A stretch of 64,000 bases of DNA from Prevotella sp. (GCA_017477435.1 JAFUVV010000016.1:15421-79420), one strand, 5' to 3'; shown: positions 48,775-54,884, counted from the first letter of the stretch. Translations and numbers: made by a program. Notes: generated by a model not told the origin, from the sequence alone.

Positions 48775-48817
48775 AAAAACAGCAGGCGGCACGTACTGTC
48801 TCGTGCCGGTCTGCTGC
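48775..48817 (-). terminator. Terminator of the PCMD/dockerin operon
   Basis: CAGCAGGCGGCACG ... CGTGCCGGTCTGCTG with a U tail on the minus strand. Confidence 0.75.
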
Positions 48818-48837: not shown

Positions 48838-50496
48838 CTACTTCTTCATCTCGTTGATGATGGTCTGGATGTCGGCTGTCGAGATCTTGCCGTCGCCATT
48901 GAGGTCGTACTTCATGTTCTGGTCGGCCTGAGCCTTCTTCATCTCGTTGATTATAACCTGAATGTCGGCGGTAGATATCTTTCCGTCGCCGTTGAGATCG
49001 TAGTTGATGCCTGCGTGCTTCACGAACACGATCCATGAGCACATCTTCGAGAGGTCGGCAGCGTAGCATGAGATGAACGCTACTTGGTCGACTTCCGCCT
49101 GCAGAGCGGGGTCGTCGGACTCCACGTCGTCGGCATCCATCACCTCCACGCCCACGAACGGTTGCTTGGCGTTGGTCGTCACGACGAAGTCATCGGCCGT
49201 GACAGCCTTGGATGTCTCCACCAGTGCTGTCTTCAGTGTGGCGTATGCAGGGAGCTCTTCTTCGCCGGCGTATGGCGTGGCTACGATGTCTGTACCGCCG
49301 ACGGTGGCAGATGTGATGTCGGCATTGTAGATGAGTTCAACGTCGTCCACGTAAAGCTCGTCGCCCTCGTTGCCTGTTCCGGCGCCGTTGTTTGTCGACA
49401 TTGTCACCATGATTGCCTTTGTCTGGGCGTTGTTAGAGGTGTATGTGTCGTAGTTGAAAGGAATGGAGAGTCGCTGCCATGTGGCACCGTTAGAGGAGAT
49501 GGTGTTGTTCTCGGCACGGGCTGCGATGTTTGTATATGTCTTGTCGACAGGCTCCTGGTAGTAGGTTCCGTCGGTGATGGTTGCCGAGACGGTTGCGTAT
49601 GGATAACTGCTGTTCACACTTTGCTGTTTGAACTTCACCCATGTCACGATGCTGTCTGGCTGTGCGTTGAGCAGCGAGTAGAACGGGTGTCCGCTTGGAT
49701 CTTTATCCGTTTTGCTAAGGTCCATCTCTGCATGATTCTTAGTGCTTGTGGCATTCACATCGCCGGCATTCAAGCGTCCAGTGGTTATTGTTCCATTGGC
49801 TATAGCTACTACGCCAAAAATGGGAACTGTTATAGGTGTTGATTTCAACAGCAGCGATTTTGTTCCTGTTGAGCCTGGACGGGTTTCTGAAGAAAGATAC
49901 GGGGCTTTACCTGCCATTGATGCCAAATCGCCCGATGCGGTGTTGAATGAGTGCCAGTATTCCGGCTCAGCGTAGGTGCCATCTTCCTCAACGGCAGCAC
50001 CTTCCGAGTCTTTGAACGATTCAAACGTTCCGTTGAAGAGCTGATATCCATCGCCGAAGCGAACGTTGATGATTTGGTGCATAAACTCCAGGTTGATGTC
50101 GATGACAGCCTGCAGCTTGTCTCCCACAAGTGCTGCGCGTAGCGAAATGGGCACTTCGCCAATCATTGGTCCCAGCCAGAAGTCGACCGACGGGTCGTCG
50201 CCTTCCTCGATGGTGATGTTGACTTCCTCGTTGAAGATGAGTCCGCGGTCGGTCTGCAGTGGTTCGCAGTCGGGCAGACTGATAGTCCCGACGCCCATGA
50301 GAGAGCCTTCGTTGTCGAGAGTGAAGTTCTTAAGGCTCAGTGTGTATGCGCCGTCGGATTGTTCGTTAAGGCTGATGGTTGCATGCTGATAGACGCTCTT
50401 GCCGTTGACTGTTACGACGAGAGTGTCGGTGTAGTCGGTGGCCATCGCGGTCAGCGACATCATCGACAATGCGATGAATGTAAAGATTTTTCTCAT
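48838..50496 (-). CDS. Secreted calycin-like + PCMD-like + dockerin protein (paralog A)
   Basis: Signal ending AMA; YTLSLKNF...WLGPMIG calycin-like; NGTFE..W, QPDSI, WQRLSIPF, LYVDDVELIY; C-terminal duplicated YDLNGDGKISTADIQ. Confidence 0.8.
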   Translation of the reverse strand: MRKIFTFIALSMMSLTAMATDYTDTLVVTVNGKSVYQHATISLNEQSDGAYTLSLKNFTLDNEGSLMGVGTISLPDCEPLQTDRGLIFNEEVNITIEEGDDPSVDFWLGPMIGEVPISLRAALVGDKLQAVIDINLEFMHQIINVRFGDGYQLFNGTFESFKDSEGAAVEEDGTYAEPEYWHSFNTASGDLASMAGKAPYLSSETRPGSTGTKSLLLKSTPITVPIFGVVAIANGTITTGRLNAGDVNATSTKNHAEMDLSKTDKDPSGHPFYSLLNAQPDSIVTWVKFKQQSVNSSYPYATVSATITDGTYYQEPVDKTYTNIAARAENNTISSNGATWQRLSIPFNYDTYTSNNAQTKAIMVTMSTNNGAGTGNEGDELYVDDVELIYNADITSATVGGTDIVATPYAGEEELPAYATLKTALVETSKAVTADDFVVTTNAKQPFVGVEVMDADDVESDDPALQAEVDQVAFISCYAADLSKMCSWIVFVKHAGINYDLNGDGKISTADIQVIINEMKKAQADQNMKYDLNGDGKISTADIQTIINEMKK

Positions 50497-50556
50497 GATC
50501 GTTTTCTTGTAGAAGGATTTATGTTTATGATTTATTTTTCAGTGAAATACTCTTTT

Positions 50557-52224
50557 TTAGTTCTGCTTGCCGAGTATTACGTCGATGAGGCTTGTCACGT
50601 CGGAGATGTCGATCGTGCCGTTTCCGTCCATGTCGGCGGCTTTGTGGTCGTAGGTGTAAGGCTTCGTGCTGTCTTTACCCAGTATGATGTCGATCATTGC
50701 GGTGACGTCGGAGATATCTGTCTTCCCGTCGCTGTTGACGTCGCCTGCCATTCTTTCCTTGTTTATGAACACCATCCACGCGTTAGCCTTCGAGAGGTCG
50801 GCGGCATAGCAAACGATGGTTGCTATCTGGTCGGCATTCTTCGGAAGTGTGGGGTCGTTGAGGATGATGTCGTCGGCATCGACCACTTCTTTGTATACGA
50901 ACGGCTGCCGGGCATTGGTCTCCACGGTGAAGTCGCTGGCAGCCACGACATCCTTCACCTCCACCTGTGCTATCTTCAGCGAGGCGTATCCCGGGAGAGG
51001 GTTCTCACCAGCGTATGCCGCAGCCTCGATGTTTTCTCCGCTGAGCTTGACGGAGGTGATGTCGGCATTGTAGATAAGTTCCATGTCGTCCACGTAAAGC
51101 TCGTCCTTATTACTTCCTTGTCCGGGATCAGCATTCGTTGACATGGTAATCAAGATTGCCTTTTGCTCGGCGTTGTTTGATGCATAGGTTGCGTAATCGA
51201 AAGGAATACTAAGCCGTTGCCATGCTGCTCCATTAGTGGCAATCGTGTTGTTTTTTGCAACAGCGACTTTGTTTGTATAAACCTTGTCCTCTGGATCTTG
51301 ATAGTAAGTTCCGTCGGTGATTGTAGCTGTGACAGTTGCGTATGGGTGTTGGGCATTTGCTGTACCCTGCTTGAACTTTGCCCAAAGTGCGATGCTGTCT
51401 GGCTGGACATTTAGAAGAGTGTAGAAAGGATGCCCGCTTGGGTCTTTTGCACTGTTACTTATGTCTATTTGAGCGTGATTTGCGACATCTGTAGCCGACA
51501 TACTTCCGGCATTAAGACGCCCATTGGTGGCAGTCCCATTTGCAACTACTCCAAATATGCTTGTGGCGAGTAGGCGTAATGATTTTTTGCTTGTTGAATT
51601 CTGCCGTGTATCATCAGACATATAGCAATGGGAGCCAGCAAGAGAAGCCCAACTTCCCGAGGCGGTGTTGAACGAATGCCAGTATTCTGGTTCGATGGTG
51701 GCGGTTGTCTCGTCTACTTCTTTTCCTTTCGAGTCTTTGAATGTCTCGAAGGAGCCGTTGTATAGGTGTATGCCGTCGCCGAAGCGGAGGGAGTAGGTCT
51801 TTGGGGAGGCGCCGGTGGTGGTGAATACGATGACAGCCTGGAGCTTGTTGTCGGCGAGCGAGGCGCGGAGAGAGAAGTTGATATCTCCTAATGATGGTCC
51901 TGTCCATGTGATGCCTCTGATGTTGTCGCCATCAGCGATGGTCGTCGTGATGTTCTCGTCGAAGATCATCCCGCGGTCGGTCTGTTTTGCATAGCAGTCG
52001 TCGAAGGTGATAGTCCCGAGAGCATCGGTGCCGGCTATGAGGTTTTTTAGGGTCAGCGTGTATGTGCCACTCTCTTTCTCGCTGAGGGTGATGGTGGCAT
52101 TCTTGTAGATGGTCTGTCCGTTGACGGTCACTGCGAGGGTGTCGCTGTAGTCGGTGGCCATTGCGGATAGCGATATTGCTGTGAGCGCAATGAGCGAGAG
52201 GATTTTCTTAATGTCGTATGTCAT
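50557..52224 (-). CDS. Secreted calycin-like + PCMD-like + dockerin protein (paralog B)
   Basis: Collinear with paralog A; C-terminal GDVNSDGKTDISDVT...AADMDGNGTIDISDVT type-I dockerin. Confidence 0.8.
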   Translation of the reverse strand: MTYDIKKILSLIALTAISLSAMATDYSDTLAVTVNGQTIYKNATITLSEKESGTYTLTLKNLIAGTDALGTITFDDCYAKQTDRGMIFDENITTTIADGDNIRGITWTGPSLGDINFSLRASLADNKLQAVIVFTTTGASPKTYSLRFGDGIHLYNGSFETFKDSKGKEVDETTATIEPEYWHSFNTASGSWASLAGSHCYMSDDTRQNSTSKKSLRLLATSIFGVVANGTATNGRLNAGSMSATDVANHAQIDISNSAKDPSGHPFYTLLNVQPDSIALWAKFKQGTANAQHPYATVTATITDGTYYQDPEDKVYTNKVAVAKNNTIATNGAAWQRLSIPFDYATYASNNAEQKAILITMSTNADPGQGSNKDELYVDDMELIYNADITSVKLSGENIEAAAYAGENPLPGYASLKIAQVEVKDVVAASDFTVETNARQPFVYKEVVDADDIILNDPTLPKNADQIATIVCYAADLSKANAWMVFINKERMAGDVNSDGKTDISDVTAMIDIILGKDSTKPYTYDHKAADMDGNGTIDISDVTSLIDVILGKQN

Positions 52225-52976
52225 TTCAGTCTGTAGTTGATTCCTATTGTTGCGAAGATAGGGTATAGGGTTTGCTCTATTGTTTTGAAGTCGCTGTGGT
52301 GGATGCCTGTGAGTCCCCAGTTGAGTTCTGCGAATGCTCCCACGTGCGAGGCGAGTCGCCAGTCGATGGCGGCTTCTATGCCGAACTGCATGTGGCGCAT
52401 ATCGTCGGAGAAGTCGTATTCGCCTCTTGTGCCGTCTTCGTTGCCGAGTTCCACTTTCGGTCCTGTGGGGTTGTCTACGCGTAGGTATCCGTCGTAGGCA
52501 TATCCGTCGAAGCCGCGTGTGAGTAGCAGCGATGCATACGGACCCGCTTTCAGTTGAATTTTCTGGGAGATGTTGAGAGTTGCGAGCAGTGGTAGTGTGA
52601 CCATCATCTCGTCGACGTATGTTGTCACTCCTCCGGTGAACACACCTCCGAGGGTCTGGTCGCCGCGTGTGATTTCCATTTTATAGTTCTTCACGTCGGC
52701 GTCTATCTCCATTGCTTTGTTCTCCAGTCGCAGTCCTGTCTCCAGTCCCCATGCGGAGGACAGCGGTTTGGTGACGTCGATACCTATCTGCAGGTTTGGT
52801 ATGATTGCAAATTTGTTGAGTCCCCGTATTGTGGCTGGCAGTCCGACGGGTGCTGTGCCTCCGATGTTGTATCCGAAGCGTGCTTTCAGTCCGATGTTGC
52901 TCAGGAATCCTTCGGCGTGTGCTGCTGAGGATAGGAGGAGCATCGCGGTGAGTGTGATTATGGTCTTTTTCATCAT
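52221..52976 (-). CDS. Small outer-membrane beta-barrel (porin/PorT-like family)
   Basis: Signal ending AHA; GYNIGGTAP; alternating beta strands; C-terminal IGINYRLK; overlaps both neighbours. Confidence 0.85.
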   Translation of the reverse strand: MMKKTIITLTAMLLLSSAAHAEGFLSNIGLKARFGYNIGGTAPVGLPATIRGLNKFAIIPNLQIGIDVTKPLSSAWGLETGLRLENKAMEIDADVKNYKMEITRGDQTLGGVFTGGVTTYVDEMMVTLPLLATLNISQKIQLKAGPYASLLLTRGFDGYAYDGYLRVDNPTGPKVELGNEDGTRGEYDFSDDMRHMQFGIEAAIDWRLASHVGAFAELNWGLTGIHHSDFKTIEQTLYPIFATIGINYRLK

Positions 52977-54127
52977 TCTTCTTCCTCGCATATTAGTCTT
53001 ACTTTGTCCACTTTGAGGCAGCTTCCTATGGCGCCTTCGAATTTTGCTCCGTCGATGCTCGATGAGAAGACTACTGTGATGTTGTAGCCTCTGTTCTCGA
53101 GCAGTTCGGGGTCTATCTCGCTGCTATAGTTGAAGTCTATCTCAAACGGTGTCCACTCTGTGGCATTCTCTGGTATCCTGAGGTCGGCCAGTGCGACGAT
53201 GTGGCTGTTTGTCTTCACGTCGTCGCCGTGGAGCACCACCTCGCTGCCGTCGGTGTCGTGGTTGCGGTAGAGTACGGCGTAGATGTTGCCTTCGTCTTGT
53301 CTTCCTTCGACGGTATTGCCTTTGTCATCCTGGAATTTCTCTCCTCGGGTGTACTGATAGTATCCCGACAGCTTCACCGGTTTCTTGTCGAACGGTATTC
53401 CGAAGCACGTTGCCATGAGGGGTTGCCGCAGTGCGATGTTGAGGTCGAAGAGTCCGAGGAACATGTTACCTGCAGCCAGGCGCATGTTCGACATTCTTCC
53501 GAACGGCCCTGTGTCGCACGTCTCGAGCTTCAGCGCTGCCCCGTCGAGTCCTTCGGCGATGGGTGTCGTGGGATATTCTTCGGGCTTTGCCGATCCTTTG
53601 CTGAGGCGGTATCCCGGGTTGCCTGTTGCCCAGTCGTTGCCCAGAGTGCCGTCGCCGAGGATGTTGTGCCAAATGTAGAACTTCTTATAGTCGGGGTCGA
53701 GTTCGTAGTTCTCAAAGTCGATGCCGATCTCAGTCTCTGTGATGGTCGACACTCTGTTCACGCTCACCTGGTATGTTCGGCTCCACTGGCCGTCTTCCGA
53801 CGTCACTGTGTAGCTTACGGGCCCTTTTGAGAAGTCCTGCACAGAGCCGCTTGCCGGCGTGATGGTTGCACCTTCTGTGAGCCTGAAATGCGGTGCGATG
53901 GCCGAGAGGTCGGCATGGCGCCGCACGTTGAACGATATCTGCGATGCATCGTAGGCAACGTTGACTATCGTGTCGGTGAGGTTGAAGAACATTTCCTCGG
54001 GGTTGTCGGAGTGTATGTATGCCTGTTCTATGTCGCACTCGGCATTCAGCGGCTCGTCTTTGAAGCACGAATGGAGGGTGAGGAGAGAAAACAGGATGAC
54101 ACTTGCTGATTTCAATTTCATTTTCAT
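52973..54127 (-). CDS. PCMD (putative carbohydrate metabolism domain) lipoprotein
   Basis: Lipobox LHSC; EPLNAECDI; GATITPASG..DF..PV.YTVTSEDG Ig-like; WATGNPG, AAGNMFLG, VVFSSSIDG.FEGAIGS.LKVD. Confidence 0.88.
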   Translation of the reverse strand: MKMKLKSASVILFSLLTLHSCFKDEPLNAECDIEQAYIHSDNPEEMFFNLTDTIVNVAYDASQISFNVRRHADLSAIAPHFRLTEGATITPASGSVQDFSKGPVSYTVTSEDGQWSRTYQVSVNRVSTITETEIGIDFENYELDPDYKKFYIWHNILGDGTLGNDWATGNPGYRLSKGSAKPEEYPTTPIAEGLDGAALKLETCDTGPFGRMSNMRLAAGNMFLGLFDLNIALRQPLMATCFGIPFDKKPVKLSGYYQYTRGEKFQDDKGNTVEGRQDEGNIYAVLYRNHDTDGSEVVLHGDDVKTNSHIVALADLRIPENATEWTPFEIDFNYSSEIDPELLENRGYNITVVFSSSIDGAKFEGAIGSCLKVDKVRLICEEEE

Positions 54128-54144
54128 AAAAAACAATTTGGATG

Positions 54145-54152
54145 CAAAATTA
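54145..54152 (-). promoter_or_regulatory. Bacteroidetes sigma-A -7 element for the PCMD operon
   Basis: TAATTTTG on the minus strand (TAnnTTTG consensus). Confidence 0.55.
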
Positions 54153-54495
54153 CGTTAATGCGAGCGAAAAAAGTAAATATTTAACAATATTTAAGCGCAA
54201 ACAGAGCAAAAAATGTAAGATTTTGGAGAAAAAGTTTACAGGTTGCCGCAGGAGAGCCAAATTTTCGAAAAATCGGTATTGTAACAATTTTGTAACGCTG
54301 TTATAGATTATCGCCCGTTGGCGGTGTGCAATGCTTTTTCACCCCCTTTTATACCCTTTTTAGGGCACAAAATACCCCTTTCCAGTGGTGGAACTTACGA
54401 ATTGAAAGCACTCTTTACTGTCCCGTTTTTGGTGACAAGGGCGAATGATTCTTTCTCTGACGTTATAAATCGGACAATAAAACCGATAACGTGAC

Positions 54496-54605
54496 CAATA
54501 AAGTTGCTTGATACTCCCGGTAGATGGGCTCTTTGATGCCATTAAAGGGCCCACTTGATGGCATTAAAGAGGCCCTTTAATGGCATTAACCCATTGGGTT
54601 ATTGT
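54496..54605. repeat. Degenerate array of 22-bp units, CATTAAA-N7-TTTAATG variant
   Basis: CA(A/T)TAA in 22-bp register at 54496, 54540, 54562, 54584; best unit CATTAAA-GAGGCCC-TTTAATG. Confidence 0.75.
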
Positions 54606-54884
54606 CGCCAGATGGTTGACATAAAAAAGGTTAAAAATATATCTGGTTGAAATACAGCGTTTTACAGATGAAGTCAAAAAATTCGATTTTTTTCAAAAAA
54701 ATTCTCCCCAGCCGAAGATTTTCAGAATTTTCGGCAAAATAGAAAAAATCGGTAAAAATGCTTACAGATTGATTCTTTCCTCCAATGTGCAATGAGGGAA
54801 AGTATGAAAAAAATGAAGGATAAAAGGCGTTGAGGCATGATGGAAGCTATTCCACCGTCACGCTCATCACCTTTTCGCCCGCTT

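Follow-up and report, generated by a model that had tools for sequence, protein, structure and literature searches.

How might secreted proteins that end in a dockerin, and that lack the C-terminal domain (CTD) of the type IX secretion system (T9SS), be displayed by a Gram-negative bacterium, and what would hold them? The question is raised by an operon of four co-oriented genes, here g1 to g4, in a 64,000-nucleotide stretch (the window) of a metagenome-assembled genome (MAG) of Prevotella sp. (GCA_017477435.1, JAFUVV010000016.1:15421-79420). The operon encodes a lipoprotein with a PCMD domain, a small beta-barrel and two paralogs that combine a calycin-like barrel, a PCMD domain and a terminal dockerin. 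The original prediction, made from the sequence of the window, saw in it a docking system outside any cellulosome, anchored either by the barrel and lipoprotein of the operon or by a cohesin encoded elsewhere. Our analysis does not bear out a docking system complete in itself. The operon is an older cassette of lipoprotein, barrel and T9SS cargo, and this cargo has been re-tagged within a set of 28 dockerin-bearing open reading frames (ORFs) of the genome. We lean, with moderate confidence that applies jointly to all steps of the explanation given below, towards regarding it as a lineage-specific form of a conserved Prevotellaceae cell-surface cassette.

All four products exceed the curated Pfam cut-offs of the families proposed for them (Dockerin_1 22.9, PCMD 28, Calycin_like 30 and OMP_b-brl_2 27 bits). 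g1 matches PCMD (PF13201) with E 2.7e-75 (253 bits), carries a weak DUF5018-like immunoglobulin (Ig) region ahead of this domain, and is a full-length relative of the structures PDB 3S30, 3HBZ, 4HET and 4JRL (E 1e-60 to 1e-65). g2 belongs to OMP_b-brl_2 (PF13568; E 1.4e-16, 61.5 bits); its profile finds no match among PDB sequences, and in the protein atlas only OMP_b-brl_2 clusters, with nothing on function. g3 and g4 are 54% identical, and both match Calycin_like (PF13944), PCMD and Dockerin_1, with E 7e-13 (49 bits), 1.6e-9 (38 bits) and 3e-8 (34.2 bits) in g3, and 7e-19 (69 bits), 1e-8 (36 bits) and 9e-10 (39.1 bits) in g4. The profile of the whole g3/g4 family recovers PCMD entries only from the PDB. 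In an AlphaFold2 (AF2) model of g4 built with 45 homologs (mean predicted local distance difference test, pLDDT, 87), residues 16-150 (calycin) superpose on BF2706/3RWX (Z 13.9, root-mean-square deviation 2.8 Å over 121 residues) and also on 8-stranded barrels, residues 148-392 (PCMD) on 3HBZ (Z 18.2) and on many carbohydrate-binding modules (CBMs; Z 10-12), residues 394-494 form an Ig-like sandwich, and residues 497-552 two loop-helix units with helices at 509-519 and 540-551. The calcium loops are intact in both dockerin repeats of g3 and g4, and the PDB dockerin 2Y3N matches with E 1e-3. Pfam scores, intact loops and the modelled loop-helix units of g4 together bear out the reading of both C-termini as dockerins.

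The N-terminus of g1 displays a lipobox followed by C-F-K-D-E. Since this fits the experimentally defined export signal of Bacteroidota surface lipoproteins, C-X-K-(D/E)2-X (PMC5080379), g1 is read as a surface-exported lipoprotein. The remaining three products have signals of the signal peptidase I type, with no cysteine. Neither g3 nor g4 possesses a CTD at its C-terminus or a CTD-like segment before the dockerin, and their description as Sec-secreted, dockerin-ended non-lipoproteins holds on both the sequence and the Pfam matches.

The closest homologs of g4 likewise end in dockerins, and the wider family, annotated as Prevotella or Hallella, keeps the core with another C-terminus. Orthologs in which a T9SS CTD takes the place of the dockerin had been named as a check of the original prediction, and they appear to exist: a tail of putative CTD type stands exactly at the dockerin position of g3 and g4. 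It follows the pattern ..Y(D/N)LxG(Q/R)xV....G.YI....GK..K.. in seven of seven readable orthologs and in 33 of 45 aligned homologs. These tails match those of the cohesin-anchor family described below (hhalign probability 98%, E 6e-14), which in turn align, along their D and E motifs, with the Por_Secre_tail-positive CTDs of the source genome (probability 82%, E 1e-5). One distant cassette member exceeds the Pfam cut-off of Por_Secre_tail (27.7 bits vs 27), and one member of the cohesin-anchor family matches the same model with E 1.2e-4.

In a maximum-likelihood tree of the core, inferred after removal of the last 60 residues (quick IQ-TREE search, SH-aLRT support), five proteins with class-A dockerins (the class of g4) and six with class-B dockerins form one clade (SH-aLRT 100) nested among CTD-bearers. 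Both classes are sister groups inside this clade, g3 falls in class B, and a third dockerin type (P0044) arose separately, beside a CTD-bearing protein. The topology thus points to at least two independent swaps of CTD for dockerin in the family. The most economical history would be a replacement of the CTD by a dockerin, followed by tandem duplication and a class change in one copy. In the metagenome homolog P0016, a chimera, a Peptidase_C11 (clostripain) domain is joined to a stretch that comprises the C-terminal part of a g4-like PCMD domain, the Ig domain and a class-A dockerin; 54% of g4 is covered, at 76% identity. This is evidence that domains have been shuffled recently, the tail moving with them.

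The source assembly (G000; 2.32 Mb in 62 contigs, by estimate 78% complete and 0.15% contaminated) contains 28 Dockerin_1 ORFs above the cut-off. The dockerin occupies the extreme C-terminus in 28 out of 28, with 2-10 residues after it. Seven belong to class B and 21 to class A, the latter showing 75-91% identity to the g4 dockerin. Partner domains comprise BspA-type leucine-rich repeats (LRR)/DUF285 (at least eight), C10, M6 (two), S8, GH76-CBM6, GH2, GH115, Endonuclease_1 and Big_2. Such domains are usual cargo classes of the T9SS in Bacteroidales. Of the secretion machinery, SprA and a PorU-like C25 protein are encoded in the genome, and no secretin was found; at least 25 ORFs end in a short Prevotella-type CTD, and 5-6 further ORFs bear Pfam-type CTDs. 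A cellulosome in the strict sense is not present, as only a single-cohesin protein was found and the cargo consists mostly of adhesins and proteases, with three glycoside hydrolases. Beyond Prevotellaceae, the class-A dockerin has its closest relatives (L132-L164) in Firmicutes (Lachnospiraceae, Ruminococcus, Selenomonadaceae; 40-59% identity), which fits the lateral transfer of dockerins proposed earlier (PMC6487960). Two ORFs resemble decayed members of the dockerin set, either remnants or pseudogenes: a 58-aa stand-alone ORF consisting of a class-A dockerin only (G000:C27:50740-50916), and one for an LRR protein with an in-frame TAA between its two class-A dockerin repeats (G000:C53:10048-10728).

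A Pfam Cohesin search of the source genome returns no match. This reflects low sensitivity and not absence, because a family profile finds a divergent cohesin on contig C7, P0121 (G000:C7:6505-7818), so that the supposition of a cohesin encoded elsewhere in the genome proved correct. P0121 (437 aa) has two beta domains, the first of them N-terminal, between a signal peptide and a CTD tail. Around it, in locus L034 (G000:C7:689-19819), lie four class-B dockerin genes, for a 1426-aa, a 445-aa, an Endonuclease_1 and an S8 subtilase protein. P0121 alone does not match Pfam Cohesin. Its N-terminal domain is read as a divergent cohesin since the family profile (40 homologs) matches the cohesin structures 4UMS (2.9e-5), 5N5P (3.1e-5) and 3UL4 (5e-4), Pfam Cohesin (PF00963) matches eight of the 40 family members, and the AF2 model (pLDDT 87) resembles many cohesins with TM-scores of 0.6-0.71. 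A cohesin hidden Markov model (HMM) run over all six-frame ORFs of the assembly recovers P0121 only, and tblastn searches of the genome with cohesin proteins of G023, G143, G119 and G035 find only common tails and dockerins. A weak cohesin-HMM match beside a dockerin gene on contig C15 was rejected as an HtrA protease; ORFs on C58 and C32 with the same module of beta domain and CTD as P0121 were likewise discarded, their N-terminal domains not being cohesins (hhalign probability <1%).

Class-A dockerins are found in none of 40 sampled relatives. A scan of genome contigs detects at least 17 of them in a sister MAG, 'uncultured Prevotellaceae RUG12886', which is syntenic with the window (locus L118). 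There, a 231-aa gene for signal, cohesin and CTD follows directly after a class-A dockerin gene (cohesin HMM E 5e-14). The matching neighbourhood in the source assembly is broken by a contig end, with C58 starting inside the flanking GAPDH-like gene, and an assembly gap is a plausible, though indirect, and the simplest explanation for the absence of a class-A cohesin here. In G344, G265 and G270, proteins of 390-415 aa composed of cohesin, beta domain and CTD adjoin dockerin genes or genes of cohesin-dockerin adaptors. A minimal adaptor of 217 aa, made of a signal, a cohesin and a class-B-like dockerin, occurs at L103:2298-2951 (G270:C67) and adjoins a 388-aa protein with cohesin and CTD.

Of 150 family genomes, 65 contain dockerins, as do 75 of 200 genomes from the genus of the source genome; in some expansions the copy number rises to dozens. 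With a cohesin profile specific to Prevotella (alignment A4), cohesins are detected in 46 of the 150 family genomes. Both modules occur together in 42 of these, a cohesin only in 4, a dockerin only in 23 and neither in 81, counts that stem from related, non-independent genomes and are descriptive rather than a statistical test. Cohesins were found in 20 of the 22 genomes with at least four dockerins, and the dockerin-only genomes mostly have a single one.

Full-length homologs of g4 occur in 13 of the 150 sampled family genomes. The order PCMD lipoprotein, barrel and a single Calycin-PCMD gene is kept in eight of eight such close loci retrieved, from at least five genera. According to the barrel profile, 73 of 150 family genomes (21 of 35 genera) carry one copy and no more, and a PCMD lipoprotein stands directly 5' of the barrel in ten of ten distant loci; taken together, lipoprotein and barrel genes are neighbours in 18 of 18 loci retrieved. 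T9SS-tailed Calycin_like and/or PCMD proteins of varying domain order lie directly downstream in four distant loci (L106, L109, L112, L113), and the other six have no adjacent cargo gene. From the adjacency of the pair and the variable genes downstream it follows that lipoprotein and barrel are the invariant core, and the Calycin/PCMD cargo a frequent, variable third part. Orthologs of g2 show 66% mean column identity, with long invariant non-membrane motifs in the barrel. g1 and g2 are probably translationally coupled and probably form a complex, which would work with the secreted proteins. Co-conservation among the operon genes, on which the original prediction had been made to depend, is borne out by the adjacency of the pair, the gene order of the close loci and the single-copy barrel.

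Variants of the cassette include g3/g4 orthologs with a duplicated calycin domain, either N-terminal or before the CTD (P0015, P0057; L070:8417-10072), one of which has a long GNGDDDNK repeat linker ahead of its masked C-terminus. In the distant locus of G004, the gene that directly follows the lipoprotein-barrel pair (L111:4654-5991) codes for 445 aa, with a PagL (lipid A deacylase) domain.

In the explanation we favour, the ancestral cassette would have comprised a surface-exported PCMD lipoprotein and a small barrel, followed by at least one Calycin/PCMD protein leaving the cell via the T9SS by means of its CTD. In the lineage of the source genome, the cargo gene would have traded its CTD for a dockerin and been duplicated, with one copy switching dockerin class afterwards. 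g3 and g4 would no longer be attached to the surface through the sortase route of the T9SS; their dockerins may plug, in a calcium-dependent manner, into monovalent cohesin-CTD anchors that are T9SS substrates themselves. Cohesin-dockerin binding and display of g3 and g4 on such anchors are suggested by homology, and some 26 other dockerin-tagged adhesins, proteases and glycosidases and a nuclease would be held likewise. The PCMD domain, a beta-sandwich like those of CBMs, has a deep pocket, and the calycin domain is a soluble 8-stranded barrel; the task of the cassette would therefore likely be capture of, or adhesion to, glycans or small ligands at the cell surface. As to the route outwards, we tentatively consider, as a possibility on the unlikely side, that dockerin proteins fold and bind calcium in the periplasm, dock on a cohesin-CTD carrier, cross SprA as a folded complex and stay held at the surface after attachment of the carrier there. 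If this piggy-back export were true, the dockerin would serve as a second-order T9SS address that can be transferred from protein to protein, and through the two classes, binding proteins that are nearly identical would be directed to two separate carriers.

Several points weigh against this explanation. g3 and g4 are exported by Sec without a CTD, which leaves their crossing of the outer membrane unexplained, and no cohesin for the class-A dockerin of g4 was found in the 78%-complete assembly. The tails of the close orthologs escape PF18962 (searched at E 0.05) and NCBIfam (E 1), which should hold TIGR04183; because these standard HMMs miss them, their assignment as T9SS CTDs is based on motifs and on profile-profile comparison. 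The non-independence of the genomes counted above belongs here, too. We know of no PCMD or Calycin_like protein with a demonstrated function, which concerns the part on the glycan ligand. A glycan is indeed a guess: the beta-jelly-roll of the BT2081 PCMD has a deep, conserved, largely hydrophobic/aromatic pocket of ~1160 cubic angstroms, and the paper that interpreted it as a carbohydrate site showed no activity (PMC2954218).

The main rival on the export route is direct recognition of the dockerin, which would itself be an outer-membrane export or sorting signal read by the T9SS or another machine, with cohesins taking no part in the export of g3 and g4. The dockerin does stand exactly at the CTD position and at the extreme C-terminus of all 28 ORFs, the g3/g4 family shows at least two replacements of a CTD by a dockerin, 23 dockerin-positive genomes are without a detected cohesin, and the source assembly has no class-A cohesin. 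We nevertheless judge this reading unlikely: a dockerin is a helical pair of EF-hands and a CTD a beta-sandwich, most of the 23 cohesin-negative genomes carry a single dockerin whereas 20 of 22 dockerin-rich ones have cohesins, and cohesin-CTD genes adjoin dockerin genes in G000, G344, G265, G270 and RUG12886. Still less probable is that barrel and lipoprotein are the receptor, with the dockerin proteins docking on g1/g2 and not on a cohesin. Pfam detects no cohesin-like domain in g1 or g2, and both dockerin classes also occur on 26 unrelated proteins encoded elsewhere in the genome. The tight linkage and probable translational coupling of the genes and the long invariant non-membrane motifs of the barrel would agree with such a receptor, but in 18 other loci the same pair either accompanies cargo with CTD tails or has no cargo next to it, and therefore g1/g2 did not evolve with the dockerin. 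Anchoring by the operon's own barrel and lipoprotein, one of the two options originally predicted, thus finds no support.

We also doubt that the EF-hand pairs are only calcium stabilisers or binders of something other than protein, with g3 and g4 being released, vesicle-borne or periplasmic and serving the uptake of small hydrophobic ligands through the barrel as a channel. Both repeats keep the full calcium loop of dockerins and the Pfam cut-off is exceeded, the occurrence of 21 nearly identical class-A dockerins on proteins that are otherwise unrelated points to one common protein partner, and cohesins and dockerins co-occur across genomes. What speaks for capture and uptake is the deep, mainly hydrophobic PCMD pocket, the resemblance of the calycin domain to 8-stranded ligand-binding or membrane barrels, the absence of an enzyme or TonB-dependent transporter nearby, and the enrichment of the Bacteroides homolog BT_3745, a lipoprotein, in outer-membrane vesicles (PMC3952158). 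As far as the ligand is concerned, this reading is compatible with display on cohesin-CTD anchors. That the dockerin genes are an artefact, by Firmicutes contamination or mis-binned contigs in the MAG, would be in line with the Firmicutes dockerins as nearest non-Prevotella class-A relatives (40-59% identity), and is nonetheless extremely improbable: the dockerins are fused in frame to PCMD and Calycin_like domains of Bacteroidota type, the contig is syntenic with other Prevotella genomes, contamination is estimated at 0.15%, and the same architecture occurs in many Prevotella genomes.

The display on cohesin-CTD anchors may be compared with the monovalent anchoring scaffoldins of Firmicutes (Ruminococcus flavefaciens ScaE; single-cohesin anchors of R. 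albus and R. bromii, PMC6118326). In both, many unrelated secreted proteins have one species-specific, internally duplicated C-terminal dockerin, a few small proteins combine a single cohesin with a surface anchoring module, and the cargo extends beyond cellulases. Unlike in Firmicutes, the envelope is Gram-negative and cargo must also cross the outer membrane, the cohesin is anchored by a T9SS CTD and not by a sortase or SLH (surface-layer homology) module, the cohesin of the source genome is too divergent for Pfam, and the cargo consists mainly of adhesins and proteases, plus PCMD/calycin binding proteins. Orthologs of g3/g4 resemble T9SS type A CTD cargo such as the gingipains of Porphyromonas gingivalis in their Sec signal, passengers, Ig-like domain and tail with D and E motifs, and the genome shares with P. 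gingivalis-type systems SprA, a PorU-like protein and cargo of C10 proteases, BspA-type LRR proteins and nucleases. In contrast to such cargo, g3 and g4 end in a helical dockerin with no CTD, and the ortholog tails are shorter than the Pfam/TIGRFAM models.

Among PCMD proteins (PF13201), g1 is a full-length member with 45-50% identity to BT2081 and its relatives over the PCMD and the same layout of Ig domain and beta-jelly-roll. The published context of the Bacteroides proteins is SusC-type loci, whereas the cassette here has no SusC/D, and g3/g4 differ from BT2081 as distant, non-lipoprotein paralogs fused to a calycin barrel. The N-terminal domain of the g4 model matches the fold of BF2706 (PDB 3RWX), a structural-genomics entry without known ligand, from which no function can be transferred to g4. 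The N-terminal Ig-like domain of g1 is homologous (E 2e-10) to that of BT1761, a glycan-binding lipoprotein of the Bacteroides utilisome (PDB 8A9Y/8AA0), and the export signal is common to both; g1 differs from BT1761 in a different C-terminal domain and in having a barrel of ~250 aa instead of a SusC/D partner.

Repeated reports list dockerins in rumen Bacteroidetes and assign them neither partner nor role (PMC6487960, PMC6071333). In the literature searched, we found no paper linking them to T9SS-anchored cohesins and no description of such a cohesin-dockerin display system in Gram-negative bacteria. The operon offers a clean natural experiment, with the same cassette bearing a T9SS tail in many species and a dockerin here, tandem paralogs that differ mainly in dockerin class, and candidate cohesin-CTD receptors. 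Three questions are therefore directly testable: how proteins without CTD cross the outer membrane of Bacteroidota, whether cohesin-dockerin binding in Gram-negative bacteria works as in Firmicutes, and which code separates the two classes. Furthermore, the lipoprotein-barrel-Calycin/PCMD module is now defined as widespread, being present in about half of the sampled family genomes, with four crystal structures yet no assigned function.

Table 1. Coordinates of the operon genes, dockerin segments and putative expression signals, counted from the first nucleotide of the window.
Feature	Position	Strand	Length	Description
g1	52973-54127	-	384 aa counted from ATG	surface lipoprotein: Ig-like N-domain and PCMD
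g2	52221-52991	-	256 aa	small outer-membrane beta-barrel, OMP_b-brl_2
g3	50557-52224	-	555 aa	secreted Calycin-like barrel, PCMD, Ig-like domain and class-B dockerin
g4	48838-50496	-	552 aa	paralog of g3, same core, class-A dockerin
g3 class-B dockerin	50575-50748	-		two DxNxDGxxDISD loop-helix repeats
g4 class-A dockerin	48847-49002	-		two DLNGDGK[IV]STAD loop-helix repeats
Bacteroidetes-type -7 box TAATTTTG	54145-54152	-		18 nt 5' of g1 ATG; pattern TANNTTTG, consensus match only
Hairpin terminator	48787-48808	-		G+C-rich, followed by T-run; 30 nt past g4 stop

The layout of the operon (Table 1) agrees with the four co-oriented genes, overlapping junctions, single promoter-like site and single terminator of the original prediction, as judged from the ORFs, the -7 box and the hairpin. 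The stop of g1 overlaps the start region of g2, where, judged from orthologs, the ATG at 52976 or 52973 is the likely true start; the stop of g2 and the start of g3 share ATGA, and 60 nt separate g3 from g4. The operon contains no enzyme domain or cohesin according to Pfam, and no SusC/SusD pair was detected in it or in ten flanking genes, so the locus is not a polysaccharide utilisation locus; the predicted lack of catalytic domain, cohesin and SusC/D is correct. No SusC/D, enzyme or TonB-dependent transporter lies nearby, and the flanking genes (GH43, DUF2851, thioesterase, GT2, DprA) are unrelated to the operon. A scan for sigma-70 promoters remained at or below chance, the sigma-70 model not being relevant to Bacteroidota, and an Rfam search of the operon and its upstream spacer gave no match. 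This spacer 5' of g1 (54137-54884) is 750 bp long and A+T-rich (~42% G+C), and contains at 54533-54589 a 28-nt inverted repeat, 82% complementary, which doubles as a 22-nt tandem direct repeat.

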